A stretch of 22,524 nt of DNA from Eubacteriales bacterium (GCA_044425555.1 JAWXVF010000028.1:1-22524), one strand, 5' to 3'. Shown: positions 2,574 to 20,976, numbered from the stretch's first letter. The notes: a model not told the origin generated them from the letters alone. Numbers and translations: made by a program.

Positions 2574-4622
2574 ATGGAGGAAAAATTGATAGATACAGAA
2601 TTAAAAAAACTAAAAGAAATGTTATGGAGTGCAGCCGATACCCTACGAGCTGATTCTGGGCTAAAATCAACAGAGTATGCAACACCTATATTAGGGCTTA
2701 TCTTCTTAAGATTTGCAGATAGTAAGTATCGTGAATATGAACATGAAATTCTAGAAGAATACAATCAAAATAAAGGTTCCAGAATGGAACGAGACATTAG
2801 TGAAATAGCAATTGAAAAATGTGGATTTTATTTACCAGATGAAGCAAGATACGATTATCTGCTTAATTTACCAGAAAGTGAAAATATTCCTGAAAAAGTA
2901 AAAGATGCTATGTGTATGGTTGAAAACTACACGAAAACACTTGCAGATACACTACCGAAAGATGAATATTATGCAGTAGATGGAAAAGATGGGAAAGCAG
3001 TTGTGAAAAGGTTATTAAAAGCCTTTAAAGACATACCAGATAATACCACTATTGATATTTTCGGTGAAATATATGAGTATTTCCTTGGTGAATTCGCCCT
3101 TGCAGAAGGACAAGGCGGTGGACAATTCTTCACACCACCATCAGTAGTAAAATATATGGTAGAGGTACTTGCACCTGTAGATGGGGAAATCTTTGATCCT
3201 GCTTGCGGAAGCGGAGGTATGTTTGTACAAGCTGCTCATTATATTCAAAAGCATAAGCAACAAGGCAATCCAATTAATCTACGTGCGTATGGTGTGGAAA
3301 AAGACAAATCCACAGTGAATCTTGCTAAGATTAATATGGTACTTCATAACATTAGAGGTACCATTACAGAAGCCAATAGTTATTATGCAGATCCTTATGA
3401 TTGTTTGGGGAAATTCGATTATGTTATGGCGAATCCTCCATTTAATGTAGATGGGGTGGAACTAGAAGCTGTAAAAAATCAGGAACGCTTTAATACATAT
3501 GGAGTACCACAGAATAAAACCAAAAGTAAAAAATCAGCAGGAGAAACAGTTCCTAATGGAAATTATCTATGGATTAATATGTTCGCTACTTCCCTAAAAG
3601 AAAACAAAGGAAAAGCAGCCCTTGTTATGGCAAATTCTGCCTCCGATGCAGGAAATAGTGAAAAAGAAATCCGTATGAAGTTAATAGAAAGTGGCGTGGT
3701 AAGTCAAATGGTTACTTTACCGTCCAACATGTTTTCCACAGTGACCTTGCCAGCAACCCTTTGGTTTTTCGATGCTAGCCATAAAAAGAAAGAGGAAATA
3801 TTATTCATAGATGCAAGGAATATATTTACACAAGTGGATAGAGCCCATAGAAAATTCACAGAAGAGCAGATTAAAAATCTTGCCATGATATCAAGGTTAT
3901 ACGAAGAAAAAAATGAAGAATATACGGTGTTACTAGACGAATACCAAGGAGAAGTATTAGAGAAATCTGCCTTATACCATGAATTACAAAGTACATGTTC
4001 GGAATTAGTGTATCATCTGTATAAAGATTCTGCTAATGAAATGGTAAAAAAATACAACGATAAAACGTATGTGCCATCTAAAAAAGTGCACGATTTCAAT
4101 GGGGTAGAAGATTATCATTTAATAGAAAAAGATTGTATCCATACAGTGGAACAAGCAAGTGCCATACAATCTATGGTAGAAAATCATACGAAAGAATTAA
4201 AGGAGCAGTTTCACGAGGTAGAAAGAGGAATTCATCAGAACCTAGATACTGCTAGCTATAAAAAAGAAATCATGGAAGCTGTTGATATTTTAAATCAATT
4301 GGATGTGTTAAAAGATGAAATTGTGTATTTCTTAGACCAGTGCATTTGGTTACAAGAACGTTTTCCACAAGGGATTTACCAAGATGTAACAGGACTCTGC
4401 AAAGTAGCCACTCTAGAAGGGGAAGATGGAATCAAAGACCAAGATTATTCTCTCAATCCGGGTAGATATGTAGGTGTTGTTATTGAAGATGATGGTATGA
4501 CAGAAGAGGAATTCAAGGAAGAAATGAGGAGTTTATATGTGGAACTTGAAATGCTAAACCAAGATGCAAGGGAGTTGGAGAGTAAGATAGGGGAGAATTT
4601 GAAGGGGTTGTTTAATGAATAG
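2574..4622 (+). CDS. hsdM: Type I restriction-modification system, N6-adenine DNA methyltransferase subunit M (long form, 682 aa)
   Basis: HsdM_N-like LWSAADTLR...LGLIFLRF, SAM motif I DPACGSGGMF, catalytic NPPF (nt 3432-3443) and C-terminal DYSLNPGRYVG. The real start may be in-frame TTG 2586, which is preceded by GGAGG. Confidence 0.95.
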   Translation: MEEKLIDTELKKLKEMLWSAADTLRADSGLKSTEYATPILGLIFLRFADSKYREYEHEILEEYNQNKGSRMERDISEIAIEKCGFYLPDEARYDYLLNLPESENIPEKVKDAMCMVENYTKTLADTLPKDEYYAVDGKDGKAVVKRLLKAFKDIPDNTTIDIFGEIYEYFLGEFALAEGQGGGQFFTPPSVVKYMVEVLAPVDGEIFDPACGSGGMFVQAAHYIQKHKQQGNPINLRAYGVEKDKSTVNLAKINMVLHNIRGTITEANSYYADPYDCLGKFDYVMANPPFNVDGVELEAVKNQERFNTYGVPQNKTKSKKSAGETVPNGNYLWINMFATSLKENKGKAALVMANSASDAGNSEKEIRMKLIESGVVSQMVTLPSNMFSTVTLPATLWFFDASHKKKEEILFIDARNIFTQVDRAHRKFTEEQIKNLAMISRLYEEKNEEYTVLLDEYQGEVLEKSALYHELQSTCSELVYHLYKDSANEMVKKYNDKTYVPSKKVHDFNGVEDYHLIEKDCIHTVEQASAIQSMVENHTKELKEQFHEVERGIHQNLDTASYKKEIMEAVDILNQLDVLKDEIVYFLDQCIWLQERFPQGIYQDVTGLCKVATLEGEDGIKDQDYSLNPGRYVGVVIEDDGMTEEEFKEEMRSLYVELEMLNQDARELESKIGENLKGLFNE

Positions 4623-4899
4623 TGAATTTTTAATTGACATTACAGAATCAAATAATTTTATAATGAATAATAAACCTAATGGTAAATTTGATAGAAAAAA
4701 AGGAATTGCGTTAATTGAGAAGCATAAATCTAAGGATATTGTTCTTGCTATGATTAACTCACCATCGAATAAGTCATTTATTCTATATGAGAATGCTGAT
4801 AATGAATTAATATATAATGTGTTATGTGAAATTAATGTCTATTTGTCTTGTAAAGAAATAATAAATGAAAATACACAGGATGGAGATGCAAATGACTAA
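4615..4899 (+). CDS. Hypothetical 94-aa protein embedded between hsdM and hsdS
   Basis: Its ATG overlaps the hsdM stop (ATGAATAG), and its stop overlaps a likely hsdS start (ATGACTAA). I recognise no domain. The C-terminus is acidic. Confidence 0.55.
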   Translation: MNSEFLIDITESNNFIMNNKPNGKFDRKKGIALIEKHKSKDIVLAMINSPSNKSFILYENADNELIYNVLCEINVYLSCKEIINENTQDGDAND

Positions 4900-6028
4900 A
4901 ATAAAAGTCAATAAATATGTGACTTTGGATAAAGTAGCATATTTTGCTAATGAGAAAATTGAATCAAAATATTTGAACAATAAAAACTATATTTCAACTG
5001 AAAATATGTTGCCAGATAAAAGTGGGATAACTATTTCTTTAAGTAATCCACAAGGGAACAATAAAAGTAAATTTTCGGAAGATGATATTCTTTTGTCAAA
5101 TATACGACCATATTTCAGAAAAATATGGTTTGCAAATATATCTGGTGGATGTTCTAATGATATATTAGTCTTAAAAGCAAAAGATAATATTTGTCCTAAG
5201 TTTTTATATTATGCGTTATCAGATAATAATTTTTTTAATTATGCTACAGTTACTTCCAAAGGTACTAAAATGCCTAGGGGAAGTAAACATGCAATAATGA
5301 AATATTTAGTTCCTAATTTAGACCAATCAGAACAAAAACGTATTACTAATATCCTATCAACCTACGATGATTTAATAGAAAACAACAATCGTAGAATAGA
5401 ACTACTAGAAAAATCAGCACAAGAGTTATACAAAGAGTGGTTTGTACGTTTTCGTTTTCCTAATTATGAGAATACAAAGTTTGTGAATGGATTGCCAGAA
5501 GGGTGGAGCAAAGGGAAATTTAAAAATAATGTAAAATATATTACGGGTAAATTGGATTCTAATGCCATGAAAGATGAGGGCGAGTTTAGTTTTTACACAT
5601 GTGCAAAGACAATTTATAAGACAAATACTTTTTGTTTTGATGGAGAGTGTGTATTATTAGGTGGTAATAATGCAACGGGAGATTTTTCATTGTTTTATGC
5701 TAATGAAAAATTAGATGCTTATCAGAGAACCTATATTATTACGCCACTTAATAATAATATAGGTTGTTCATATATATATTTCGTGTTGAAAAATTATCTT
5801 ATGCATTTGAAGCATGCTAGCATTGGAGCTACAACTAAATTTTTAACAAAGTCTATATTAGATAAAATTAACATAGTATTACCCGATAAGATGATAGCAA
5901 ATCAATTTAATAAAATTGTTTCTTCAATATTTTTAGAGATGAGTAAACTAAAATTAAACAATGTGAACCTAAAAAAACAGCGTGATTTATTATTACCACG
6001 CTTAATAAGCGGTAAACTGGAGGTGTAA
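4865..6028 (+). CDS. hsdS: Type I R-M specificity subunit S
   Basis: Two variable target-recognition halves are separated by the conserved central helix LIENNNRRIELLEKSAQELYKEWFVRFRFP. The C-terminal conserved helix is LKKQRDLLLPRLISGKL. The likely true start is ATG 4892, 6 nt after GGAG. Confidence 0.9.
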   Translation: MKIHRMEMQMTKIKVNKYVTLDKVAYFANEKIESKYLNNKNYISTENMLPDKSGITISLSNPQGNNKSKFSEDDILLSNIRPYFRKIWFANISGGCSNDILVLKAKDNICPKFLYYALSDNNFFNYATVTSKGTKMPRGSKHAIMKYLVPNLDQSEQKRITNILSTYDDLIENNNRRIELLEKSAQELYKEWFVRFRFPNYENTKFVNGLPEGWSKGKFKNNVKYITGKLDSNAMKDEGEFSFYTCAKTIYKTNTFCFDGECVLLGGNNATGDFSLFYANEKLDAYQRTYIITPLNNNIGCSYIYFVLKNYLMHLKHASIGATTKFLTKSILDKINIVLPDKMIANQFNKIVSSIFLEMSKLKLNNVNLKKQRDLLLPRLISGKLEV

Positions 6029-6029
6029 A

Positions 6030-6557
6030 ATGGCTGATAAAAATCAAACTCATGTGATAGAAAATGTATTTGATAATCTAAAAAAGATTACGCCCGTATT
6101 AATTACTATTGATATTTGTACAGGATTAATTATATTTTTGCCAAGTCATATGCTGGAAAGAATGAAATTGAATTTAATTTCAGATGAGTGGTTGTTATAT
6201 ATTAGCCTAATATTTTTATTTAGTGTATCATTAACAATTGTTATTATATGCTATAATATTGTGAAAGCCAAGCTATTGGAATTTCAGGAAATAAACTTGA
6301 GAAAAAAATTAAGGATTAGGTATATTAATTTAAGTAGTAGCCATAAGTCTCTTATTAGAAACTTATTAAATACTAAAGAGAAAAGTATAGAATTAAATGC
6401 TTATTCAGGAGATGTTGTGTACTTAGAAAATAATATTTTCATTATGTCGTCATCTAACATGACAGGTAGGTACGGTCAGAGTGAAATGTATTTACAATAT
6501 GTGCCACAACCATGGTTATTAGATTTATATAATAAAGAACCAGAATTATTTCAATAA
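6030..6557 (+). CDS. 175-aa two-transmembrane protein embedded between hsdS and hsdR; possibly SieB-like superinfection-exclusion family (tentative)
   Basis: It starts 1 nt after the hsdS stop. Two hydrophobic helices are present (VLITIDICTGLIIFLP and WLLYISLIFLFSVSLTIVIICYNIV), followed by a soluble C-terminal domain. The layout resembles what I recall of PF14163-type proteins. Confidence 0.6.
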   Translation: MADKNQTHVIENVFDNLKKITPVLITIDICTGLIIFLPSHMLERMKLNLISDEWLLYISLIFLFSVSLTIVIICYNIVKAKLLEFQEINLRKKLRIRYINLSSSHKSLIRNLLNTKEKSIELNAYSGDVVYLENNIFIMSSSNMTGRYGQSEMYLQYVPQPWLLDLYNKEPELFQ

Positions 6558-6569
6558 AGGAGGGACACC

Positions 6570-9500
6570 ATGCCAAGCTTCATATCCGAAGACATGATCG
6601 AACAAGCAACCATTCAAAAATTAGTTGAATGTAACCAATACAATTCCATTAATTGCTACACTTCCGATCCTGATACTTTGGAGGATGGAAGTGGTAGGGA
6701 ACATAAAAAGCAAGTGGTGTTACCTACTGTTTTACGTGAGAGTTTAGTACGGTTGAATAAACAGTTACCTATTTCCCTTGTAGAAAAAGTTGCCAAAGAA
6801 TTAGAGAAAACACCCACAACCGCTATGGTAATGGAGGCTAATTACCAATCTTATCAAACCATAAGAAATGGTATTGATGTAGAATATGATGAAAACGGCA
6901 AGAAGAAAAAAGGGAAACTAAAAGTAATTGATTTTACCCATCCAGATCATAATGATTTTACAGTTGTTTCCCAATTATGGATTCGAGGTGAGGTTCATTG
7001 GCGTAGACCAGATTTGATTCTCTATGTAAATGGATTGCCAATGGTATTTATAGAGTTGAAAAACTCTAATATTAAGGTGAAGAATGCCTATGACAAGAAT
7101 CTAATGGATTATAAAAAAGATATCCCTTATTTATTTCAGTATAACCAAGTTTGTGTATTATCCAATGGAACGGAGACGAGGATTGGTAGTTTTGCTGCTG
7201 GGTATGAACACTTTTTTGAGTGGCTGAAAATAGAAGATGAAAAAGAAAATCCCAATCGGAAAGAAATCAAAGACAATGCCATTAGCCTAGAATACTTAAT
7301 AAATGGCTTACTACGAAAAGAAGTATTAATAGATTATATAGAAAATTTTATCTTATACGATAGACAACGAATCAAATTAATTGCCAAGAACCATCAATAT
7401 TTAGGAGTGAATAATGCCTATGAAGCCTTTTTAAAGAGAGAACACCTAGAAGGAAAGTTAGGTGTATTTTGGCATACCCAAGGGAGTGGAAAGAGTTATT
7501 CCATGGTAATGCTTACAAGAAAAATAAAGCATAAAGTAAATGGGAATTTTACTTTTCTAGTAGTGACAGATCGAGTAGATTTAGATGATCAAATATGGAA
7601 AAATTTTTATCGTACAGAATTTATTTCTAAAGATGAAAAAGTTCGCCCTGCAACTGGTGCAAAACTTCGTGAAGAATTAAAGAATCATAAAACCATCTTA
7701 TTTACTACGATTTATAAGTTTAAATACGATAAAGGGAAAGAGTATCCTATTTTATCAGAGCGTGATGATATTGTTGTGATTGTAGATGAAGCACACAGAA
7801 CTCAATATAAGGATTTAGCAGAGAATATGCGAAAAGGATTACCTAATGCACAATTTCTAGCATTTACAGGAACTCCTTTATTAGGAGCAAAGCGATTAAC
7901 CAACGCTTGGTTTGGAGATTATGTTTCAGAATATAATTTTACCCAATCAGTCAATGATCATGTAACAGTTCCATTATATTATATCAATGGTATGAAAGAG
8001 GTACGATTGCAAAATGATTTTCTTGATAGTGATTTGTCAGAAATATTGGAAGATGAAAATCTGTCAGATTCGGAACGAGAAAGACTTGAAAATCAGTATG
8101 CCAAGGAATTAGAAGTGATTAAGCGTGATGATCGATTAAAAACCATAGCAAGACACATTGCATACCATTTTCCACGTAGAGGATTTCTAGGAAAAGGTAT
8201 GGTAATTTCCGTTGATAAATTTACCGTAGTTCGCATGTATGATATGGTAAATAATTACTGGAAGGAAGAAATTAAAAATCTAAATGTGGAGATTACGAAC
8301 ACAGCTGATGAAAATAAGCGTATAGAACTAAAAAGAATGGTAGATTATATGCGAAAAGTACAAATGGCAGTTGTAGTAAGTGGAGAAGAGAAAGAAGAAG
8401 AGAAATTTCAAAAACAAGAACTCACCATAAAAGTACATCGTGATAAAATGAATGCAGTCGATGAAAATGGAATGGATATAGAAGATAATTTTAAAGATGT
8501 CAATCACCCTTTAAGCCTAGTGTTTGTATGTTCTATGTGGTTGACGGGGTTTGACGCACCTTCCATATCTACTTTATATTTGGACAAGCCTATGAAGGGA
8601 CATACTTTGATGCAAACCATTGCTAGAGCTAATCGAGTGTACCCAGAGAAAACAAGTGGCATTGTCATTGGCTATTTAGATGTGTTTAAATCTTTGAAAA
8701 AAGCATTACTAGACTATGCAGCAGGGGATGAGGAAGAGCTACCAGTTAAGAATATTGAGAAATTGTACGAACAGCTTTTAGAAGCTATTGAAATGACGAA
8801 AACCTTTTGTACTACACAAGGCATTGATTTAGCAAGTGTAGAGGAGAAAGAGGATGTGTTTGCCAATTTATCTAAGTTAGAAGAATTTGCCAATATCCTT
8901 GTATCCAATGATGAAGTGAAAAATGAATTTCGAGTTCTTGCTAATACCGTTGGGAATTTATATGAAGCATTACGACCAGATATTTTCAAAATGGATTTTC
9001 GTGCCAATGAAAAAGAAATCATACTATACTTAAAAGGAATCCTTGATGGGAAAATAAGACCTGAAAAGATAGAGGCTGCTAAGTATAAGATAGATGAGTT
9101 GTTAAATCAAAGTATAGTTGCAGAAGAAACGACTACCTATGATGTGGGAAATTCTCAGGAAACTTTACCTGCCATTACCACGTCAGAACCTATTGATTTA
9201 TCGAAAATTGATATAGATGCATTAAAAGAGCAAATGCAGAAAGCAAAATATAAGAATCTAGAAATAGCCAATCTACGTGAGCATATTGAGAAAATTTTGG
9301 CACAGATGATAAAGAAAAATAGAACCCGTACTAGTTTTGCAGAACGATTCCGTCATATTATAGATGAATACAATGCAGGAGGGGCATACAATGATGAGTT
9401 TTATAAAAAGTTATTAGAATTAATGCGAGAATTGCAAGAGGAAGAACGTAGGCATATTAGGGAAGACTTAAGTGAGGAAGAACTGGAATTTTACGATTTG

Positions 9501-9776
9501 TTACAAAAAGATAAATTAACGAAGGAAGAATTAAAGCGTGTAAAACTTGCTGCTAGTACACTCTACCAAACGTTGCTTGCGAAAAAAGAAGAATTATTCG
9601 TAGTAGGGTGGGAAAAAGACGAACAGCCAAAAGAAAAAGTAAGAAAAGAAATTATGGCAATCTTAAATGAATATCTTCCGGATAGTTACAACCGTGAAAT
9701 TTTTGCTAATAAATCGGATGTAGTCTTCTATCATATTGTGGACCAAGCGTTGATGGGATTGAATTGGATTGCTTAG
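6570..9776 (+). CDS. hsdR: Type I R-M restriction subunit R (nuclease plus SF2 helicase/translocase)
   Basis: AGGAGGG RBS. PD-(D/E)xK-type motif PDLILYVNGLPMVFIELK, Walker A HTQGSGKS, DEAH-type VVIVDEAHRTQ, motif VI QTIARANR, and a long helical C-terminal domain. Confidence 0.95.
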   Translation: MPSFISEDMIEQATIQKLVECNQYNSINCYTSDPDTLEDGSGREHKKQVVLPTVLRESLVRLNKQLPISLVEKVAKELEKTPTTAMVMEANYQSYQTIRNGIDVEYDENGKKKKGKLKVIDFTHPDHNDFTVVSQLWIRGEVHWRRPDLILYVNGLPMVFIELKNSNIKVKNAYDKNLMDYKKDIPYLFQYNQVCVLSNGTETRIGSFAAGYEHFFEWLKIEDEKENPNRKEIKDNAISLEYLINGLLRKEVLIDYIENFILYDRQRIKLIAKNHQYLGVNNAYEAFLKREHLEGKLGVFWHTQGSGKSYSMVMLTRKIKHKVNGNFTFLVVTDRVDLDDQIWKNFYRTEFISKDEKVRPATGAKLREELKNHKTILFTTIYKFKYDKGKEYPILSERDDIVVIVDEAHRTQYKDLAENMRKGLPNAQFLAFTGTPLLGAKRLTNAWFGDYVSEYNFTQSVNDHVTVPLYYINGMKEVRLQNDFLDSDLSEILEDENLSDSERERLENQYAKELEVIKRDDRLKTIARHIAYHFPRRGFLGKGMVISVDKFTVVRMYDMVNNYWKEEIKNLNVEITNTADENKRIELKRMVDYMRKVQMAVVVSGEEKEEEKFQKQELTIKVHRDKMNAVDENGMDIEDNFKDVNHPLSLVFVCSMWLTGFDAPSISTLYLDKPMKGHTLMQTIARANRVYPEKTSGIVIGYLDVFKSLKKALLDYAAGDEEELPVKNIEKLYEQLLEAIEMTKTFCTTQGIDLASVEEKEDVFANLSKLEEFANILVSNDEVKNEFRVLANTVGNLYEALRPDIFKMDFRANEKEIILYLKGILDGKIRPEKIEAAKYKIDELLNQSIVAEETTTYDVGNSQETLPAITTSEPIDLSKIDIDALKEQMQKAKYKNLEIANLREHIEKILAQMIKKNRTRTSFAERFRHIIDEYNAGGAYNDEFYKKLLELMRELQEEERRHIREDLSEEELEFYDLLQKDKLTKEELKRVKLAASTLYQTLLAKKEELFVVGWEKDEQPKEKVRKEIMAILNEYLPDSYNREIFANKSDVVFYHIVDQALMGLNWIA

Positions 9777-9781
9777 AGTAA

Positions 9782-10570
9782 ATGCATGAAAATAAGAGGG
9801 AGGTAATTATGATTGAGAAGACACAAAATGTATTAATATCAACCTTATTAGGTAAGGAACTAATTTTTGAAATTGATAATGATGATTTAAAACCAAAAAC
9901 AATTGAATTGTTCAAGAGGTTTATTTCTCATATTCCGATTGTAGAAATTCAAAATGAAACCTTTTATAGAGCCAGAGTCATTGCTGATGAGGACGGTATG
10001 GAACAAGGAATTGTGAGAGAAAATGGAATTCCAATTACTGGATATAATACAATATATTCAGGTGTTCCGCCAAAAGAAGTGATAAAGCATGAAGGTAGAG
10101 TAAATCGAATAAATGAACAGGTATTATATATTGCAGAAGATCAAGAAACAGCAATTCGTGAACTAAAAGATGAGAAATCTAAATATTTTTCTGTTGCAGA
10201 ATATTTTGTAAAAGAGCCAATTAAGGTGTTTGATTGTTCTGCATTTACGAAAGAACAACTAGAGGAGACATTGTCACCAAGTATTAGAGATGAGTTTGAA
10301 AATAAATATCAGATGTCATTGACAATATTGTATATAAAGCTACAAGAACATTTAACGTTTGGACCATCAAAAAAAGATGGCGAAAAGGAGTATAAATTTT
10401 CCTTAAAAATGATTGATTTCATGAAGGAATATCATAATATATCAGGAGTTAAATATGTTTCGTCGTACACATATAAATCTAATGTAGCAATTTGGGATGA
10501 TAATAAATTTTTGAAATGTGTAAATAGTATGGTTGAACGAAAGAAGGGGAAGCATAACAAAGACAATTAA
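9782..10570 (+). CDS. RES-domain protein (NAD+-targeting toxin superfamily) with no adjacent Xre-type antitoxin
   Basis: The R/E/S signature is in the canonical order: FYRAR..., EGRVNRINEQVLYIAEDQETAIRE, and GVKYVSSYTYKSNVAIWD. The probable true start is ATG 9809, 5 nt after AGAGGGAGG. Confidence 0.75.
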   Translation: MHENKREVIMIEKTQNVLISTLLGKELIFEIDNDDLKPKTIELFKRFISHIPIVEIQNETFYRARVIADEDGMEQGIVRENGIPITGYNTIYSGVPPKEVIKHEGRVNRINEQVLYIAEDQETAIRELKDEKSKYFSVAEYFVKEPIKVFDCSAFTKEQLEETLSPSIRDEFENKYQMSLTILYIKLQEHLTFGPSKKDGEKEYKFSLKMIDFMKEYHNISGVKYVSSYTYKSNVAIWDDNKFLKCVNSMVERKKGKHNKDN

Positions 10571-10613
10571 GGATTAACTCTAAATATAGCATGTAGAAAC
10601 AAAAGGAGTTCAT

Positions 10614-11816
10614 ATGAAATTAAGAAAAATTAACTTTAAAAACCACCCCATTTTAAAAGATTTACAAGTAAGTTTGGAAGATGAAAAAGGGGAAATAGTA
10701 AATACAGTTATATTTATTGGGGATAATGGAAGTGGAAAAACAAGTATTCTTAGAGGAATTTTGGAGAACTTTCAATCTTCTAAGGTTGAAAAATTCCTAA
10801 AAGGAACAGATTTGGATAGTTTAGAGCTTTCTTTTGGAAAAGAACTACTCAAAACAATACCAGATAATGCATTGTCAGAATATTCTGTGATATATTGGGG
10901 AATAAAAAATTCTGTTTTTGCTATTGACGAATCTGATCAGGATGCAACAAGTATAGGAAAGATTGTATTCATGCCAACGGAAATTAATTTTTCTATGGCA
11001 ACTGCAATAGATACAAGAAAAGAAATTCCAGATCAATTTATTAATATTATTGATCAAAAGATTGCAAATGATATATCTTCTTTTGTTGCTACAGCAATTG
11101 AAACAGAAGTATTTAAAAATGAAGATGTGGCAGTAAAAGAAAGTATGAAAAAAGTTTGTGATGAAATCAATTCTATTTTTCAATGTATGGATTTAGAGAT
11201 TGAACTTGTAGGATTATCTAAAGATGAGAAGAAGCAACCTATTTTCAAGAATCACAATAATGATACGTTTGCAATTGAGGATTTATCATCAGGAGAAAAG
11301 CAACTATTCATACGTGCGTTATCTTTAAAGTTTTTAAACATTAATGATTCTATTATTCTTATTGATGAACCTGAAATTTCGCTACACCCACAATGGCAAC
11401 GAAAGATTATCAGCGTATATGAAAGTATTGGTAGGAACAATCAATTAATTATTGCAACTCATTCGCCCCATGTCATAGGAAATATTAGAAAAGAGCAATT
11501 ACGAGTTTTACATCGAGATCATAATGGTATTCAGATAGTGCCAACGGAGGAAGTAGAACGAACATATGGACAGACTATAGAATCCATATTAACTCACAAT
11601 ATGGGACTTGAAAGTGTACGAAATGAAGAATTACAATTTAAAATAGAACAAATTCAAAAATTATTACGAAATGAGAACGCCTTAGAAAATAAGGAATTTC
11701 AAGAATTATTAATAGATATTTCAGAACACCTAGATGATTCCGATGTAGAGATGGCACTTATCAATGCACAAATAAAACGGATGAAAATGAGGGGTACTAG
11801 AAATGTTGAACAATAA
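10614..11816 (+). CDS. ptuA: ABC/SMC-like AAA ATPase, Septu PtuA-like
   Basis: Walker A GDNGSGKTS, signature LSSGEKQ, Walker B IILIDEPEISLHPQWQ, H-loop IIATHSPH. An HNH partner gene overlaps downstream. Confidence 0.75.
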   Translation: MKLRKINFKNHPILKDLQVSLEDEKGEIVNTVIFIGDNGSGKTSILRGILENFQSSKVEKFLKGTDLDSLELSFGKELLKTIPDNALSEYSVIYWGIKNSVFAIDESDQDATSIGKIVFMPTEINFSMATAIDTRKEIPDQFINIIDQKIANDISSFVATAIETEVFKNEDVAVKESMKKVCDEINSIFQCMDLEIELVGLSKDEKKQPIFKNHNNDTFAIEDLSSGEKQLFIRALSLKFLNINDSIILIDEPEISLHPQWQRKIISVYESIGRNNQLIIATHSPHVIGNIRKEQLRVLHRDHNGIQIVPTEEVERTYGQTIESILTHNMGLESVRNEELQFKIEQIQKLLRNENALENKEFQELLIDISEHLDDSDVEMALINAQIKRMKMRGTRNVEQ

Positions 11817-12375
11817 GAAAGCAAATGAGCCATGCGAGTATACGGATTTGGCAAAGAAAGTATCTAATTATCAGGAGTTTGATACTCATATAAAAGAGAT
11901 ATTGAGAGATAATTTCATTTGTGAGCAAGATTCTTACTGTCCATATTGTGAGCGAATTATTGAGAATAATGTTAACAGTTGTCATATTGAACATATAAAG
12001 CCACAATCTGCTTATCCTAATCAGAGCAAAGAGTATACCAATATGATTTTATCTTGTAATAATAAAAATACATGTGGGATACGAAAAGGGAATCAATACC
12101 ATGAGGATTTTATAAATCCTACGATAGAAAATCCAACATTTTATTTAAAATACGATTTAGCGTCAGGTGAAGTTTATTCCGTTGATGATAATCCTAAGGG
12201 AGAGTACACCATTAAAGTTTTGAACTTAAATGACAAAAAACTGAAACAAATGAGAAGGAATAAAATTTTTACTTATATAAATTTAGATAGTTCCATGCAA
12301 TTAAAACTTATAAATTGGGAACTAGAGAATTTGTATGGGAGTAACTTGATTTTCCGCAAATGCATTTGGAATTAA
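11803..12375 (+). CDS. ptuB: HNH endonuclease, Septu PtuB-like / TIGR02646-like (retron-type HNH)
   Basis: It overlaps the ATPase gene by 14 nt. The Cys/His motifs are CPYCERI...SCHIEHIKPQS...NMILSCNNKNTCGIRKGN. Confidence 0.75.
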   Translation: MLNNKKANEPCEYTDLAKKVSNYQEFDTHIKEILRDNFICEQDSYCPYCERIIENNVNSCHIEHIKPQSAYPNQSKEYTNMILSCNNKNTCGIRKGNQYHEDFINPTIENPTFYLKYDLASGEVYSVDDNPKGEYTIKVLNLNDKKLKQMRRNKIFTYINLDSSMQLKLINWELENLYGSNLIFRKCIWN

Positions 12376-12449: not shown

Positions 12450-13604
12450 TTACCCATCCCAAGTCCTTCCTTCCATCCAATCCCTAAATTCCTCCGCTGT
12501 CATACAACCATTAACATAGTCACGTCTAACCTGTTGGAGTTGTTTAGACCAGTTTAGAAAGCTATCACGTATATGGTTAGCAACATCTAAATCATATTCA
12601 TTGTCTACATGACGTTCCATACGTGCATGAGTTGATTTATAGAGTTTGCTATACATTTTTAGTAAAGGATCTTTCTCCACATTTTCTTTATATTTTTGCT
12701 TATTACCGATTTCTTTGCAAGATTTTCCGTTTGTATCTACTCTGTCACAATATAAAGTATCGTGTTTAGAGAGAAGGACAAAATAGCGATTACAGTTTTG
12801 ACATTTACGAATGCGTAGACCACGTTTAATGACTTCGATAAATTCAAAATATAATAATTCTTCAAAGTCTTTGAGTAGTACATACTCAGTAATATTAGCA
12901 CTAGTAGTATTTAGATTATGTATTTCTGTGAGAATGTCCATATGCCGTTGTAAATTACTACTTGCATTGGTACCAATTAATTCTTGCTGTTCAAAGTCTA
13001 ATTTCCCATTTTTCGTGGGAGCTACACTTACTCCGGTTAGAAAGTGAAAATTAGAAAAATCAGGGTATAGACCAAGAAAGGATAGAAAACCTGCTGTAAT
13101 AGATGATAATGGTTTATCAAAATCAATATCGCAACAAAAAGTAATACCCTTTTCAAAGAGTTCCAGTAGTACCAGTACCTCATCTAAAGTAGCAACACCT
13201 AATTGTAACTTTTCAGGATAGGGATTCTGGCTTTGAAAGATTACATTTAATTTTTCACGAGTATAAAAATGTGCAATAGGAAAGCTTTGATATAATATGG
13301 TGACTATTTCATATAAATATTGTTCTGAAATTTTAGAAACAATGGTAATATCGTTATCATTCATATGCTTTGTATCCGTATGCATAGTGGAGATGGTCTC
13401 TTTTGCTTGGTCAACTTTACATTTATATTCGCTTAAATCAGCTAGAAGAAATTCTACCAATAATTTTCCAATATAATCGCAATCAAACATTGCTGCGCCT
13501 GCATCTGCATATACCATATATCTAACCCTATTATGAATGTCTGTATAAGCTTTCATATAGGGTTTCTTTATGTTTGAAAACATAGTGATTATCCTCTCTT
13601 TCAC
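12450..13604 (-). CDS. Hypothetical protein with a C-terminal zinc ribbon (possibly DUF6076-like); a backbone gene divergent from rep
   Basis: 384-aa ORF. The Cys cluster is CQNCNRYF...YCDRVDTNGKSCKE. The likely real start is ATG at 13583, about 8 nt downstream of AGAGAGGA on the minus strand; the track start is GTG 13604. Confidence 0.65.
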   Translation of the reverse strand: MKERIITMFSNIKKPYMKAYTDIHNRVRYMVYADAGAAMFDCDYIGKLLVEFLLADLSEYKCKVDQAKETISTMHTDTKHMNDNDITIVSKISEQYLYEIVTILYQSFPIAHFYTREKLNVIFQSQNPYPEKLQLGVATLDEVLVLLELFEKGITFCCDIDFDKPLSSITAGFLSFLGLYPDFSNFHFLTGVSVAPTKNGKLDFEQQELIGTNASSNLQRHMDILTEIHNLNTTSANITEYVLLKDFEELLYFEFIEVIKRGLRIRKCQNCNRYFVLLSKHDTLYCDRVDTNGKSCKEIGNKQKYKENVEKDPLLKMYSKLYKSTHARMERHVDNEYDLDVANHIRDSFLNWSKQLQQVRRDYVNGCMTAEEFRDWMEGRTWDG

Positions 13605-13824
13605 AATCTAGTAATTTAACCTATAAAAATTTCTTTTGTTACACCTTATTTTTTTAATCTTCCTTTTTTTGTATGATAACACAATGTATATGGTATATTT
13701 TGTCAAAACCTGTCATGGATAATTACTTTTTACAAATTTATGGAAAATTAGTCCTTCATTTTTAATGTATTACATTTGCGATAAACTAAGCAAGTCAACA
13801 AAATAAGAAAGAAAGGGGGAACTT

Positions 13825-14814
13825 ATGGAACACACAAACTATGTATTTTATCGTTTGCCAAAGGTATTGTTTACCAATGAGAAATTACACCAATTATCAA
13901 TTGAGGCAAAATTATTGTATACAGTTATGCTAGATCGTCTTTCTTTATCCATAATCAATCAGTGGAAAGATAAGGAAGGAGAAGTATACATTTATTTTAC
14001 TATTGAACATGGGTGTGAACTTTTAGGTAAGAGTTATTCGAAAATATCCAAAGTAATGGCAGAATTAGAAGCACTCAAGTTGATTGTTCGTAAACGCCAA
14101 GGGCAGGGGAAACCATCTAGGATTTATGTGAAAACAGATATGTTACAGACACCTATCATAGAAGCAGAACCTACAAATATAGCGGACAAGATAGGAGATA
14201 TACAAGTATCAAGAGATAGTTCTTTCACGGTTCAAGACCTATTAGAAACAGATACGAATAAGACTAATAGGAATCAAAATAATACCAATAAGATAGAGTC
14301 AATCCATCTATCCTATGAGAATGGGATAGAAGAAGACACTTGTTTAGAAGATGTTATTTTCAAAGAATTGTTAGAGGAACAAACACTACCTAGAGAATAT
14401 CTTTACCAAGAGGAGAAATTAAGGATTGCCTTTCAGATTTTAACGGAACATGAAATATTTGTTAGGAATAGTAAAAAGAATTATGATTCCCAACAAGATT
14501 TAAGTATTTTGAATTTATTGATACAAGCATTATGTGAAATGCTAACCGAGAAAAAGCCTATGCAGATAAAGGGCTATTTAGTTACGGTTAGTCAAGTCTA
14601 CAAAAAATTAATAACCTATCTTAGCTTTGAACATCATCATCCATCTATGTATACATTTTATACAACTGTGATGGATGACTACAAAACAGGCGCTATTCAT
14701 AGTGAAATAAAACATCATCTTGGCTATATGAAAGCATGTATCTGGAATGTTTTGCTAGTAGGAGACATTAGCCTTCAAACGAAATTGTTAAATCACTTTG
14801 GAGGGCAAATGTAA
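13825..14814 (+). CDS. Replication initiator protein, RepA_N family
   Basis: The N-terminus YVFYRLPKVLF...LSIEAKLLYTVMLDRLSLS...VRKRQGQGKPSRIYV is the typical RepA_N signature. RBS AAAGGGGGA. Confidence 0.85.
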   Translation: MEHTNYVFYRLPKVLFTNEKLHQLSIEAKLLYTVMLDRLSLSIINQWKDKEGEVYIYFTIEHGCELLGKSYSKISKVMAELEALKLIVRKRQGQGKPSRIYVKTDMLQTPIIEAEPTNIADKIGDIQVSRDSSFTVQDLLETDTNKTNRNQNNTNKIESIHLSYENGIEEDTCLEDVIFKELLEEQTLPREYLYQEEKLRIAFQILTEHEIFVRNSKKNYDSQQDLSILNLLIQALCEMLTEKKPMQIKGYLVTVSQVYKKLITYLSFEHHHPSMYTFYTTVMDDYKTGAIHSEIKHHLGYMKACIWNVLLVGDISLQTKLLNHFGGQM

Positions 14815-14820
14815 AGGCAA

Positions 14821-14920
14821 CACACCCAAAGGGTGTGGCAAGCATCCTATCTGTAAGACGCTAACGCATCTTAATCATAAGATTTACAATCTTATGATGG
14901 ATAGGTTCCTGCTAACGCAG
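14821..14920 (+). promoter_or_regulatory. Candidate origin of transfer (oriT) upstream of mobC and the relaxase gene
   Basis: Hairpin CACACCC-AAA-GGGTGTG (14821-14837). An 11-bp perfect inverted repeat, ATCATAAGATT-tac-AATCTTATGAT (14874-14898), is flanked by CCTATC (14846-14851) and GATAGG (14900-14905). The 9-bp direct repeat GCTAACGCA occurs at 14860-14868 and 14911-14919. Confidence 0.5.
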
Positions 14921-14937
14921 ATAAAAAAATAAAAGAA

Positions 14938-15273
14938 ATGGAGAAGTGGAAAATGAATAAAACAAATAGTATTACCTTTCGTGTATCAGACCATGATAAA
15001 AAATCAATTGTAGCAAGAGCGAAAAAAGGGAAGATGAAAACTTCTGATTTCTGTCGTTATGCTGTATTAGGAAAGGAAGTACGACACATTGAAGGGCTAA
15101 AGGAATTGATATTTGAATTAAATAAGATTGGAAATAATCTAAACCAATTAACGGTATTATGTCACCAAAGACGAGTGGATAATCCTAATTTAGAAGAAAT
15201 AACTTACCAATTAAATAGCGTATTTGATGTAATCGTAATGGTACTAGGAGGTGATGACTATAGCAATTGTTAA
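14938..15273 (+). CDS. mobC: Relaxosome accessory protein MobC
   Basis: The ELNKIGNNLNQLTVL motif is typical of the MobC family, with a ribbon-helix-helix-like N-terminus (ITFRVSDHDKKSI). The likely start is ATG 14953, after GGAGAAGTGG. Confidence 0.85.
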   Translation: MEKWKMNKTNSITFRVSDHDKKSIVARAKKGKMKTSDFCRYAVLGKEVRHIEGLKELIFELNKIGNNLNQLTVLCHQRRVDNPNLEEITYQLNSVFDVIVMVLGGDDYSNC

Positions 15274-16417
15274 ACCCATTAAAGTACGAAGTGGAAATTT
15301 GGCTGGACTGAAAGGAGTTTTAACTTATATTCAAGAAGACCATAAAACAGAAGATGGAAAGCTTGTGTGGGGAAAAGATTTGGTAAAAGGGAAGGAATTT
15401 GAGCAGATGTTTATTACAAAAAAAATGCATCAGAAAATAAGCGGTAGACAGTATGCTCATTTTGTGCAAAGTTTTGGTGTAGATGATTTAGTGACACCAG
15501 AGATGGCGTTTACAATTTCTAAGGAATTTATTAAGCGTAATCACAAGTTTGATGATTTCCAAGTGGTATCTGCAGTGCATACAAATGAGAAGCATATGCA
15601 TATTCATTATATTGTGAATTCGGTTGGCATAGAAAAAGGAGAGAAGTGGCAATGCTCCCCTAAAGATTTAGAAAAAATGCGTAATATTTCAGATGAATTA
15701 TGCTACGAGTATGGTTTATCGGTTATTGAACATCGAGGGAACTTCCATCAAAAATATGGGGAATATAAAGCATTTAAAAGTTGGAAACAACAACTTGCAA
15801 GTGACATTGCAAAAAGTGTAGAAGAAAGTTTTTCACTGGAAGATTTCTACCACAATTTAGATAGCAGGGGGATTGATTGTAGTTTTGGTAATCATAATAT
15901 TATGTTTCAGGTGTTTGCTGGGTATTGTGGCTTAAACGGGGAACGATTCTGTAGCAATTATAAGCTAATGTCCTATGGAGATTTTAGTAGGGAGAATATC
16001 TTAAATAGTGTAGATTATAATGATTATAATCTAAAATCAGGATTAATTGCTATACATCAAGGTGGTGATATTTTTCAGGAATTAGCACAACTTGATATAT
16101 GGGGAAAGGAAGATATGAATATAGATATGTCTAGCTTGTATCAGGCAGTAATACAAGAAATAGAATTTAAAGGAAAACCGTGGTATCAGATACAGACTAT
16201 TATTGTCCAATTACATGCAGACCAAATGAAACAAAAATTAGCTAGAGAAGGGCTATTGGCACTACATGAACAAAAGAAACAGAGAAAACAGCAAAACATA
16301 TTTCTGCCATCAATCTGCAATCTACTTGAAGAGTTTTATTATTGGAAATACCAAAAAGAACTTAATAGAAATGACAGGTATAGAGAAGAAGAGTTAGAAG
16401 ATATGTGGGAACTCTAA
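15251..16417 (+). CDS. Relaxase/mobilisation nuclease (MobA/VirD2-type)
   Basis: N-terminus TIAIVKPIKV..., the histidine triad region HTNEKHMHIHYIVNSV, and AGGAGG immediately upstream. It overlaps the mobC 3' end. Confidence 0.9.
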   Translation: MMTIAIVKPIKVRSGNLAGLKGVLTYIQEDHKTEDGKLVWGKDLVKGKEFEQMFITKKMHQKISGRQYAHFVQSFGVDDLVTPEMAFTISKEFIKRNHKFDDFQVVSAVHTNEKHMHIHYIVNSVGIEKGEKWQCSPKDLEKMRNISDELCYEYGLSVIEHRGNFHQKYGEYKAFKSWKQQLASDIAKSVEESFSLEDFYHNLDSRGIDCSFGNHNIMFQVFAGYCGLNGERFCSNYKLMSYGDFSRENILNSVDYNDYNLKSGLIAIHQGGDIFQELAQLDIWGKEDMNIDMSSLYQAVIQEIEFKGKPWYQIQTIIVQLHADQMKQKLAREGLLALHEQKKQRKQQNIFLPSICNLLEEFYYWKYQKELNRNDRYREEELEDMWEL

Positions 16418-16683
16418 TAGCTTGTCATAAAAAGAAAGCAATTCACATAATATTAAACAGCATAATGGAGGTGCAGGAGATGAAAGAAAAGGAAAAATTA
16501 AATATTACATTTCATAATCCAAACACTGGCGATGAGTTAATTAAGGAGTTGATTAGAATTTCTGCGTCAATGGCACATGAAACGGTGAAGAAAAAATTAC
16601 TTGCACTGGAACAAGAAGAAATGAATACATATACTTTGCAAAATGAAACACAAGATAATGAAGATGATGAATGGGAACGATAG
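16405..16683 (+). CDS. Small hypothetical protein; likely start at ATG 16480
   Basis: GGAGG (16467-16471) lies 8 nt before ATG 16480, giving MKEKEKLNITFHNPNTGDELIKELIR.... The C-terminus is acidic. I recognise no domain. Confidence 0.5.
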   Translation: MGTLIACHKKKAIHIILNSIMEVQEMKEKEKLNITFHNPNTGDELIKELIRISASMAHETVKKKLLALEQEEMNTYTLQNETQDNEDDEWER

Positions 16684-16694
16684 GATAGGGATTG

Positions 16695-16733
16695 GGGAAT
16701 AACTTTTACAAGGAGTTATTCCCTTCCTTCTTT
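16695..16733 (+). terminator. Intrinsic terminator ending the rep-mob transcription unit
   Basis: 10-bp stem, GGGAATAACT (16695-16704) pairing with AGTTATTCCC (16714-16723), with a 9-nt loop and a T-rich tail ttccttcttt. Confidence 0.7.
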
Positions 16734-16785
16734 ACATGAGTCAAAAGTTGCTAAAAGAAAATATGATAATTTTCTAGGAAATAGA

Positions 16786-16814
16786 TTGACACATTAACAT
16801 AATGGACTTATAAT
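16786..16814 (+). promoter_or_regulatory. Perfect consensus sigma-A promoter: TTGACA, 17-nt spacer, TATAAT
   Basis: TTGACA at 16786-16791 and TATAAT at 16809-16814, with a 17-nt spacer. It lies upstream of the AlbA_2 gene and recombinase gene pair. Confidence 0.6.
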
Positions 16815-16860
16815 AAAATAGATGTAACAGATATAGAAAAATAACGAATAATATGTCGAA

Positions 16861-18396
16861 ATGGAGGTAATCATGGGGATAGCAACCAATATCAAGACTT
16901 TGCTATCAGGGAATGTAGTTGAATGGGCAAGAATTGAATACAAAGAAACATGGGATGCTGTTGCTTCTTTGAAAACTATATGTGCATTTGCTAATGATCT
17001 TGATAATTGGGGTGGTGGATATCTTGTCATAGGTGTTAAGGAGGAAGAAGGTCGTCCAATATACCCATTACAAGGAATAGCAACTGATAAAATAGATAGT
17101 CATCAAAAGGATATTCTATCAAAATGTAAACTGATTCGTTCAGAATATATGCCAATAATAGAAGTAGTGGAATATCAAGAGAGAAACTTTATCATACTTT
17201 GGTGTCCAGGAGGAAATACAAGACCTTATTCATCACCTAAGACTATGGGTAAAGATAATAAAGATCGGATTTATTATATACGCAAAGGGTCAAGTACCAT
17301 AATCCCAACTTCAGAAGAAGAGAAGGACTTATTTCATTTAGCCAATCGAGTACCTTTTGATGATAGAATAAATAATCAAGGGGAAATGACAGATTTGAAT
17401 ATTACACTGATTCAAAGTTATTTGAAGGAAGTAAATAGTTCTTTGTTTGAAAAATTAAAAACAGAGGATTTTACTTCTGTTTGTCGTGATATGAATATTA
17501 TTGGGAATCTTCCAGAATATACGAAACCTAAAAATATAGGACTTATGTTCTTTAGTCTAGAACCAGAAAAGTTCTTCCCCTATGCCCAAATAGACGTAGT
17601 GCAATTTCCACAAGGATTAGGGGGCGATAATATCATAGAGCAAACTTTTAAAGGACCCATTCAGCAACAACTAAGAGATGCACTTATATATATTAAAAAT
17701 ACAATTATTACAGAAAAAGTGATTAAACACCCTCATAAGGCAGAAGCAGATCGGTTTTTCAATTATCCTTATGCTGCCATTGAAGAAGCCTTATCTAATG
17801 CAGTGTATCATAGAGGTTATGATGAAAGAGAACCCATTGAAGTACGTGTAGAGAATGATAGGATAGAGATTGTAAGCTTTCCTGGTCCGGATCGTTCAGT
17901 AACCGATGAAGGTCTGAAAAGTTATCGTGTGTCCAATCGCAGATATAGAAATAGAAGAATTGGAGAGTTTTTAAAAGAATTGCATTTGACAGAAGGAAGA
18001 AATACAGGATTTACAAAAATATTAAATGCTTTGAACGCAAATGATTCCCCACAGCCTGAATTCGAAACTGATGAGGATAGAACTTATTTTATTGCAAGAT
18101 TTTTCATACATGAATGTTTTAAAATAGAAAAATATGGAGTGGATTTAGAAGTAGAAACACCTTCAATAACACCTTCAATAGCACCTTCAAAAAGCGATCT
18201 GCTATTACAAGAAAAAATCATTAAATTAATAAGAAAAAATCCTAAAATTACAAGAAAAGATATGGAAAACAAATTGAAAATTTCTGAATTTATGTTAAGA
18301 AAACAAGTGGAATTTTTAAAGAAAAATAATACCATCGAGTACGTAGGTTCTAGCAAAGGTGGTAATTGGATTATAAATAGGGAGGGCAACTCATGA
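16861..18396 (+). CDS. AlbA_2 (Schlafen-like 'divergent AAA') / HATPase_c_4-like ATP-binding protein with a C-terminal winged HTH
   Basis: N-terminus GNVVEWARIEYKETW...ICAFANDLDNWGGGYLVIGV is AlbA_2-like. The central region EEALSNAVYHRGYDEREPIEVRV...GRNTGFTKI follows. The C-terminal HTH is KIIKLIRKNPKITRKDMENKLKISEFMLRKQVEFLKKNN. The likely start is ATG 16873, after GGAGG. Confidence 0.75.
   Translation: MEVIMGIATNIKTLLSGNVVEWARIEYKETWDAVASLKTICAFANDLDNWGGGYLVIGVKEEEGRPIYPLQGIATDKIDSHQKDILSKCKLIRSEYMPIIEVVEYQERNFIILWCPGGNTRPYSSPKTMGKDNKDRIYYIRKGSSTIIPTSEEEKDLFHLANRVPFDDRINNQGEMTDLNITLIQSYLKEVNSSLFEKLKTEDFTSVCRDMNIIGNLPEYTKPKNIGLMFFSLEPEKFFPYAQIDVVQFPQGLGGDNIIEQTFKGPIQQQLRDALIYIKNTIITEKVIKHPHKAEADRFFNYPYAAIEEALSNAVYHRGYDEREPIEVRVENDRIEIVSFPGPDRSVTDEGLKSYRVSNRRYRNRRIGEFLKELHLTEGRNTGFTKILNALNANDSPQPEFETDEDRTYFIARFFIHECFKIEKYGVDLEVETPSITPSIAPSKSDLLLQEKIIKLIRKNPKITRKDMENKLKISEFMLRKQVEFLKKNNTIEYVGSSKGGNWIINREGNS
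18157..18192 (+). repeat. Three tandem 12-nt repeats inside the AlbA_2-like ORF, in the linker before the wHTH
   Basis: ACACCTTCAATA, ACACCTTCAATA, GCACCTTCAAAA encode TPSI-TPSI-APSK. Unit-number changes would stay in frame. Confidence 0.8.
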
Positions 18397-19931: not shown

Positions 19932-20064
19932 AGATATAACAGACCGTTTAATGCAAATCAATCCAACCTTAGCAATGGAAGCTAGAAAAATATTGGATGT
20001 GAATAAATCAGAACGTCATATTCGTGGTGGATTGGCAACGAAAGAAAAATATTCACACAGTTAA
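19927..20064 (+). pseudogene. spoIIID: 3' segment of the split sporulation regulator gene spoIIID (C-terminal half only)
   Basis: The in-frame translation HKDITDRLMQINPTLAMEARKILDVNKSERHIRGGLATKEKYSHS* is collinear with the C-terminal half of B. subtilis SpoIIID as I recall it (HKDLTERLPEINPDLANEVKEILDYHKSIRHLRGGEATKLKYK). There is no RBS and no N-terminal HTH half. An upstream in-frame stop lies at 19909-19911, inside the recombinase ORF. Confidence 0.8.
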
Positions 20065-20078
20065 GCGGAAACGGGATT

Positions 20079-20100
20079 GCATCTATTAGGGTGCTTTTCT
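20079..20100 (+). terminator. Weak candidate terminator after spoIIID
   Basis: 5-bp stem, GCATC pairing with GGTGC (one G-U pair), a 6-nt loop, and a TTTTCT tail. Confidence 0.3.
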
Positions 20101-20206
20101 GTGTTGTAGAAGTAAAATACGTTAAAATAATAACATAAAAAAGAATAGTCATTCGTGAATATAAATGGTAAAATGGTAAGAGTTACTACGAAGGAGAGAA
20201 AAGAAT

Positions 20207-20884: not shown

Positions 20885-20976
20885 GAAAATCATAAGGTGT
20901 TTGGACACTGGTATTATTAAGATAATAATAAAACATAAAATAAGTATGATGGATACGGTAAGAGAATGGAGTATTT

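Follow-up and report, generated by a model that had tools for sequence, protein, structure and literature searches.

We have analysed a stretch of 22,524 nucleotides from an uncultured bacterium of the Eubacteriales, which we call the window. Near its middle lie two overlapping genes, ptuA and ptuB, which follow a RES gene and, before it, a type I R-M operon. The features of the window are as follows.

609-1553: AbiD-like Abi_2 gene
1791-2219: DUF4869 gene
2574-9776, plus strand: type I R-M operon, recognised with Pfam and PADLOC
2574-4622, plus strand: hsdM
4615-4899, plus strand: ORF of 94 amino acids
4865-6028, plus strand: hsdS
6030-6557, plus strand: SieB-like gene, in the slot between hsdS and hsdR
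6570-9776, plus strand: hsdR
9809-10570, plus strand: RES gene, encoding a divergent RES/ART-fold protein of 253 amino acids; taken as a neighbour outside the Septu system
10614-11816, plus strand (exact ORF limits): ptuA, encoding an ABC-type (OLD/AAA_21-like) ATPase of 400 amino acids
11803-11816, plus strand: overlap of ptuA and ptuB, 14 nt
11803-12375, plus strand: ptuB, encoding an HNH (beta-beta-alpha-Me) nuclease of 190 amino acids, TIGR02646 family
12450-13604, minus strand: DUF6076 gene
13825-14814: RepA_N gene
14938-15273: NikA/MobC gene
15251-16417: relaxase gene
16861-18396: AlbA_2/HATPase_c_4 gene
18393-19931: large serine recombinase gene
20207-20884: AIM24 gene
20977 onward: guaA

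Overall, the window represents the defence cargo carried by an integrative mobilisable element (RepA_N, MobC/relaxase, serine recombinase), which is inserted near guaA. All the genes between 2574 and 12375 are co-directional, with gaps of at most 43 nt; RES and ptuAB follow the 3' end of hsdR, the gaps being 32 nt between hsdR and RES and 43 nt between RES and ptuA. No terminator-like site was found on the plus strand between 3214 and 14000, and the stretch from RES through ptuA to ptuB holds neither a convincing internal promoter nor a predicted terminator. Since the gaps are this short and the plus strand shows no terminator, the genes of 2574-12375 are likely to be co-transcribed, which is not proof of a functional unit.

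The pair at 10614-12375 is matched by both Septu models when PADLOC is run on the whole window. PtuA hits the model PDLC00289 (2.9e-111, 370 bits) over residues 1-399 of 400 and profile positions 1-402 of 404, and PtuB hits PDLC00332 (3.7e-42). In addition, PtuA has Pfam matches to AAA_21 and AAA_15, and TIGR02646 scores PtuB at 67.8 bits (cut-off 52.15). The ATPase motifs of PtuA are all intact, that is, Walker A (GDNGSGKT, residues 36-43), signature (LSSGEKQ, 224-230), Walker B (IILIDEPE, 247-254) and H-loop (ATHSP, 281-285), and their positions are unchanged in an alignment with 27 relatives. In PtuB we have located CPYC (46-49), HIEH (61-64), N80 and C85/C91, which line up with the HNH core of 9n69_F, a solved PtuB-type chain (C..C, HIEH, N and C..C are all kept). 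The solved structures nearest in sequence come from Septu and from type I-A retrons: PtuA matches Septu PtuA 8ee4 and retron PtuA chains in its C-terminal half, and PtuB matches the PtuB chains 9n69_F, 9l7p_H and 8ee7_C. As for the genes, an RBS (AAAGGAG) stands 5 nt 5' of the ptuA start, and the 14-nt overlap, which can be read straight from the sequence, implies translational coupling of ptuA and ptuB. Of the seven relatives in which an intact pair was called, six show a similar overlap, of 7-17 nt, and one has a 1-nt gap. The preliminary description had named a Septu-like PtuA/PtuB pair on the grounds of complete ABC ATPase motifs, a TIGR02646-like HNH nuclease and the 14-nt overlap, and each of these points is borne out. 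An assignment of the ATPase to the AbiL/HEC-01/PARIS class was also considered and was rejected, as these models reach at most 128 bits, compared with 370 bits over the full length for the PtuA model, and ptuB encodes an HNH protein rather than Toprim or RloB.

Homologous ATPase-HNH pairs also serve in type I-A retrons (Retron-Eco7/Ec78, Ec83), where RT and the msr/msd ncRNA accompany them; neither was found beside ptuAB here. In agreement with what had been stated before, no RVT domain occurs in any ORF of at least 80 amino acids in the window, all of which were annotated, and an Rfam search of the same 22,524 nt returned zero matches, with no tRNA genes either. The proteins themselves point in the same direction. 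PtuA has 400 residues versus 542-552 for the retron PtuA chains in PDB, and the roughly 150 extra residues of the latter, i.e., the N-terminal extension and the helical flap, are missing from it. According to PMC12819146, retron PtuA binds RT-ncRNA-msDNA through elements that it has gained, namely an N-terminal extension, the helical flap and charged loops, and stand-alone PtuA falls into a separate cluster. As the protein of the window is only 400 amino acids long, it would have no room for the retron-type extension and flap elements. Moreover, both proteins fall far under the cut-offs of the NCBIfam retron equivalogs: NF041760 (retron Ec78 PtuA) gives 112.3 bits against a cut-off of 500, on residues 130-393 only, and the retron PtuB equivalog gives 89.8 bits against 150. 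A retron with an unannotated RT was rejected as well, for no unannotated ORF is large enough for an RT, Rfam gives no match, and the PtuA is of the short form. By its length and its profile scores, PtuA is thus classed as the short, retron-independent (stand-alone) type.

With stand-alone Septu (PDB 8EE4/8EE7, Septu Ec-B88), the pair shares adjacent and overlapping genes, no RT, intact ATPase motifs, a TIGR02646 HNH nuclease, and best PADLOC models that are matched over the full length. On the other hand, certain differences do exist. PtuA is 400 amino acids long here compared with 465 in 8ee4, its similarity to the solved E. coli Septu is mainly limited to the C-terminal half, and its host is an uncultured Eubacteriales MAG.

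PtuA homologues number in the thousands, and our survey covers ten distinct contexts of close relatives. Relatives of 68% and 51% identity lie between brxC and pglX in BREX operons, and one of 63% lies just upstream of pglZ-brxL. One of 60% follows another AAA_21 ATPase and a 60-aa gene; one of 58% is a truncated copy in an AbiE island. At 47% identity, one relative is found immediately upstream of hsdR, and another forms a bare two-gene cassette amid housekeeping genes in Peptacetobacter chromosomes, on many contigs. The remaining ones come from a Clostridiaceae MAG (46%) and a viral contig (37%). A ptuB gene lies directly 3' of every intact ptuA copy, mostly overlapping it, the truncated copy being the exception. 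Five of the ten contexts place PtuAB in or beside BREX or type I R-M operons, and none of the ten has a RES gene nearby. A genome-contig scan with PtuA gave one locus (L021), and RES is not there.

We have examined the RES gene upstream in the same way. Its ATG at 9809, preceded by a strong RBS (AGAGGGAGG), is a likelier start than 9782. The preliminary description had called the product a RES protein, and the assignment stands, as the protein narrowly passes Pfam RES (PF08808) with 24.3 bits against the GA threshold of 23.2 and its predicted fold matches RES toxins. Its relatives score at most 35.7 bits with the same model, and the PADLOC and PHROGs scans assigned no family to it. When the RES profile was searched against PDB sequences, no match reached significance, so that the protein had to be placed by its fold. 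The AlphaFold2 model (48 sequences; pLDDT 89.5, pTM 0.86) retrieved with Foldseek from PDB the toxin MbcT (E 1.5e-5), and then ParT, VPA0770 and the P. putida RES, with TM-scores to RES toxins of 0.42-0.57. The family alignment shows R97 and E118 without variation and S218 conserved to at least 90%. We therefore describe the protein as a putative NAD+-targeting toxin, either NAD+-consuming or ADP-ribosylating.

The RES/ART fold and the conserved Arg/Glu/Ser (R97, E118, S218) are shared with the RES-Xre TA systems MbcT-MbcA, ParT-ParS and P. putida RES-Xre. Unlike them, the window protein has two additional helical elements in its model, a hairpin at the N-terminus (residues 5-39) and an insert (residues 148-206), with TM-scores and a Pfam score as modest as those given above, and its gene is not accompanied by an Xre/DUF2384 antitoxin gene. 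In fact, no Xre/DUF2384 gene or other antitoxin candidate flanks it: hsdR adjoins on the 5' side, and the 32-nt gap between the two holds no small ORF. A profile search collected about 70 related proteins, 245-260 amino acids long and nearly all annotated as RES, and within this family the window protein is among the two most divergent members (mean identity 40%, versus 61% among the rest); a profile scan of viral contigs found no relatives. A search for an antitoxin candidate among the flanking ORFs found no gene conserved throughout the family; the MazE-like gene is limited to one subclade. We note separately that this RES-like family is compact, shows no obvious antitoxin and is missing from PADLOC, which makes it a candidate single-gene defence or toxin module.

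The loci of the RES family were gathered by exact-protein look-ups, a metagenome scan and plasmids, and the 51 fetched loci amount to about 16 distinct contexts. Co-occurrence of RES and PtuAB was assessed with hmmsearch and phmmer on every stop-to-stop ORF of 108 fetched loci and of the window. The contexts of RES include the following.

L001-L005: beside three tyrosine recombinases
L006-L010: 3' end of an hsdR-hsdM-hsdS operon; in L006, RES follows hsdS
L011-L015 and L047-L049: after a MazE/AbrB-like gene; in L047-L049, RES is frameshifted
L016-L020: upstream of a gene for a NACHT-pentapeptide protein
L031, L044 and L045: in prophages, just before the tape-measure gene, and once after an RT
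L032-L035 and L043: followed by a 166-aa gene without an assigned family, on RepA_N elements
L036: after a relaxase
L059-L064: in an AbiE/DUF1643/AAA_14 island
L051: a distant relative (31% identity) in the AbiLii position, immediately following the gene of an AbiLi-like ABC ATPase

Neither PtuA nor PtuB was found near the RES-family gene in any of the 51 loci (about 16 contexts), and the window alone has both. Three examples of distant RES proteins on plasmids were also inspected, none of which lies beside an ABC ATPase.

The 3' end of the R-M operon, where both RES and ptuAB lie, can be compared with a close relative. The closest HsdR comes from Acetoanaerobium noterae (72.8% amino acid identity; HsdM there, 79%). 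The homology extends from hsdM across a part of hsdS and through the whole of hsdR, and it ends exactly at the hsdR stop (window position 9775). The A. noterae operon has no SieB-like gene, RES or PtuAB, but it does have a SIR2_2 gene (534 aa), which overlaps the stop of hsdR. As SIR2 stands there where the window has RES-PtuAB, the operon tail is a site of cargo swap. When the whole window was compared with plasmids by megablast, only a 158-bp hsdS fragment was retrieved. As a side observation, type I R-M operons that are closely related exchange different NAD+-targeting genes, namely RES and SIR2, at their 3' ends.

Septu and other HNH-ABC dyads embedded in Hma, BREX and type I R-M systems have already been described (bioRxiv 10.1101/2024.01.29.577857; PMC12839542). 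The nearest PtuAB relatives, which lie between brxC and pglX, before pglZ and beside hsdR, resemble the embedded dyads of HNH and OLD-type ABC ATPase (Payne et al. 2024 preprint; PMC12839542), and so does the pair of the window by its place at the tail of an hsdMSR operon. It differs from them in that it is appended after hsdR, not nested among the core genes, with RES in between.

Based on the above analyses, we consider it very probable that 10614-12375 is a canonical, retron-independent two-gene Septu, forming a self-contained mobile cassette, and that RES is a separate gene stacked there by chance. The preliminary description had gone further and suggested a three-gene RES-PtuA-PtuB variant with RES as a new accessory or regulatory partner. 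In such a system RES would replace the retron RT/msDNA or serve as a second effector controlled by PtuA. Co-directional genes, a 43-nt gap and likely co-transcription do fit this proposal, and two RES contexts lend it some parallel, that is, the AbiLi-like ABC ATPase followed by the RES-like protein of 31% identity in L051, and another family member 58 nt upstream of a NACHT NTPase. The surveys argue against it from both sides, since RES and PtuAB were never met together outside the window in the loci surveyed, PtuAB relatives exist as a bare pair, and RES in L006 follows hsdS without PtuAB. Within the window, moreover, RES is as close to hsdR (32 nt) as to ptuA (43 nt), and the 400-aa PtuA does not carry the N-terminal or insert element with which retron PtuA handles its third partner; in the published literature we found no link between RES and Septu. 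A lack of co-conservation had been named beforehand as the outcome that would speak against the three-gene variant, and this is what the two surveys returned. We thus hold the three-gene system to be extremely improbable: from the earlier reading, the Septu pair and the missing RT are retained, and the joining of RES to them is given up. By its gene neighbourhoods, RES is better described as an independent single-gene cassette and not as a PtuAB subunit. As RES, ptuA and ptuB are probably co-transcribed, a local functional interaction between RES and ptuAB may nevertheless take place, judging from the sequence alone. A broader proposal sees in the RES family a free-standing NAD+-targeting effector recruited in trans by various NTPase sensors, for which PtuA (window), the AbiLi-like ATPase (L051), NACHT (L016-L020) and the type I R-M motor (window and L006) have been put forward. 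If so, the window would hold a dual-effector Septu with an HNH nuclease and an NADase or, alternatively, an NADase guarding the R-M system, comparable to SIR2 at the same position in A. noterae; we consider this recruitment in trans quite improbable too.

The position behind hsdR also invites comparison with PrrC in EcoprrI, where an abortive-infection-type effector is genetically joined to hsdMSR; the SieB-like gene in the hsdS-hsdR slot adds to the likeness. RES, and perhaps PtuAB, would then be PrrC-like back-ups, silent while the R-M complex is intact, which we judge improbable. The same low probability applies to the course of events it implies, in which a phage anti-restriction protein disables R-M and releases the effector, so that the cell dies through NAD+ depletion or tRNA cleavage. 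What favours such a role is that two of the about 16 RES contexts lie at type I R-M 3' ends (the window and L006-L010), that the closest R-M relative bears the NAD+-consuming SIR2_2 at the same position, and that half of the PtuAB-clade contexts, five of ten, are in or beside BREX or type I R-M; the concept, in addition, is established for PrrC and has been proposed for embedded ABC-ATPase systems (bioRxiv 10.1101/2024.01.29.577857; PMC12839542). However, neither protein has PrrC homology, and the association with R-M is not obligate in either family. RES is also found in prophages, beside relaxases and with the MazE-like gene, PtuAB also stands alone in chromosomes, and so neither shows the near-exclusive embedding in type I R-M expected of a PrrC-like guard; the embedding may reflect mere linked transfer and shared expression. 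A further explanation concerns RES alone and detaches it from phage defence and PtuAB: it could be the toxin of a TA or addiction module stabilising the mobile element, with an antitoxin that is unrecognised or acts in trans. We rate this as possible but rather unlikely. The match of its fold to the TA toxins MbcT and ParT argues for it, as do the subclade with a MazE/AbrB-like gene directly upstream, the frameshifts of RES in two MazE-type contexts (three loci), as decaying toxins would show, and the carriage of the family by RepA_N elements, IMEs and prophages. It is opposed by the window itself, where no flanking antitoxin candidate accompanies RES, by the majority of family members, which are without a conserved partner, and by the frequent presence of defence genes (type I R-M, NACHT, AbiE, AbiL) next to RES.

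Returning to the two-gene Septu, its likely way of working can be outlined from characterised systems. Defence by E. coli Septu needs the ATPase motifs of PtuA and the HNH motif of PtuB, and infection triggers the cleavage of tRNA-Tyr in its variable loop (PMC13096335). In PMC12819146 and in Li et al. 2024, which it cites, stand-alone PtuA is presented as a trimer-of-dimers with an inflammasome-like assembly whose C-terminal helices hold PtuB. The same sources describe protein-mediated control of stand-alone PtuA, e.g., by sensing of the phage tail fibre, and nicking of supercoiled DNA by PtuAB in vitro (PMC12819146; Li et al. 2024 cited there). We assign this scheme to the window pair because its catalytic residues and the C-terminal region aligning with solved PtuA are kept. 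By homology, a PtuA oligomer would grip PtuB through the C-terminal helices, the complex would stay idle until a phage infects, and once active it would halt phage production. The nucleic-acid target of PtuB, tRNA-Tyr or DNA, is here inferred from the distant E. coli homologues. As to the origin of the arrangement, the PtuAB mobile cassette would have joined the type I R-M operon at its 3' end, within the element's defence cargo, and RES would be a second, separate single-gene cassette stacked at the same site by chance.

Septu is already well known, and the pair of the window adds one member to it. The practical value of this result is mainly negative: genes that stand close together and co-directional in a defence island should not be taken for a multi-gene system without co-conservation. 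Overall, one more Septu has been catalogued, from a mobile element of an uncultured member of the class Clostridia, and the window illustrates the known pattern in which defence cassettes are stacked on, or embedded in, methylation-based systems.

The defence genes of the window are the cargo of an integrative mobilisable element, whose own genes follow them. The features of the window and of its closest relative by the type I R-M operon, the Acetoanaerobium noterae locus L065 (NZ_CP154629.1), are:

Window 4615-4899, unannotated 94-aa ORF bridging hsdM and hsdS
Window 6030-6557, SieB-like gene (PF14163), 175 aa, between hsdS and hsdR
Window 9809-10570, RES-family gene
Window 12450-22524, element genes (DUF6076 on the - strand, RepA_N, NikA/MobC, relaxase, AlbA_2/HATPase_c_4 and the serine recombinase), then AIM24 and guaA
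Window 18393-19931, large serine recombinase
L065 12189-13793, SIR2_2 gene, 534 aa, overlapping the hsdR stop

Since the element adjoins AIM24 and guaA, its insertion boundary likely lies between 19931 and 20207.

The HsdR proteins of the window and A. noterae share 73% amino acid identity, and homology between the two loci ends at the hsdR stop codon. Here the SIR2_2 gene of A. noterae occupies exactly the position that RES and PtuAB take in the window (9777-12375). That is, related R-M operons carry different NAD+-targeting genes at their tails. The operon interior also differs: the SieB-like gene, which sits in the same hsdS-hsdR slot as PrrC in EcoprrI, is missing from the A. noterae relative, and the window HsdM (2574-4622, 682 aa) contains an additional stretch of ~120 residues, at approximately aa 462-581, without a counterpart in the alignment to the 79%-identical A. 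noterae protein.

The RES/ART-fold family of the window gene comprises ~70 compact proteins of 245-260 aa (comparison loci L001-L020, L031-L050 and L059-L064, besides the window), to whose fold a helical hairpin at the N-terminus and a helical insert are added. Its genes are dispersed as solo genes in prophages, IMEs, RepA_N elements and defence islands; no Xre antitoxin accompanies them in the window or the fetched loci, and neither PADLOC nor PHROGs has a model for the family. The family is a candidate for a defence or toxin module that consists of one gene.

Some RES genes are found beside NTPases. In L016-L020 (e.g., L016 677-3980), an 824-aa NACHT-pentapeptide-repeat gene lies 58 nt downstream on the same strand, and the two may form a two-gene unit. 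In L051 (contig PDYJ01001529.1, 4644-6768), the gene of a distant RES-like protein (289 aa) takes the AbiLii position, 22 nt downstream of that of a 410-aa AbiLi-like ABC ATPase, and the two may represent an ABC-ATPase/RES effector pair; this locus additionally encodes a canonical AbiLi/AbiLii pair, a Lit-like peptidase and PD-Lambda-3_B. In the prophage loci L031 (4569-9957), L044 and L045, family members are morons immediately upstream of the tape-measure gene. The L031 copy is directly preceded by a 421-aa reverse transcriptase, which among PADLOC models matches a generic RT (PDLC01136) best and a homing-endonuclease model next.

The closest PtuAB relatives (47-68% identity; L022-L025, L029-L030 and L054) reside within BREX operons, as brxC|ptuAB|pglX or ptuAB|pglZ-brxL, or directly 5' of hsdR. 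Members of the window's PtuAB clade are frequently embedded in loci for methylation-based defence, in agreement with published 'embedded defence' surveys (bioRxiv 10.1101/2024.01.29.577857; PMC12839542).
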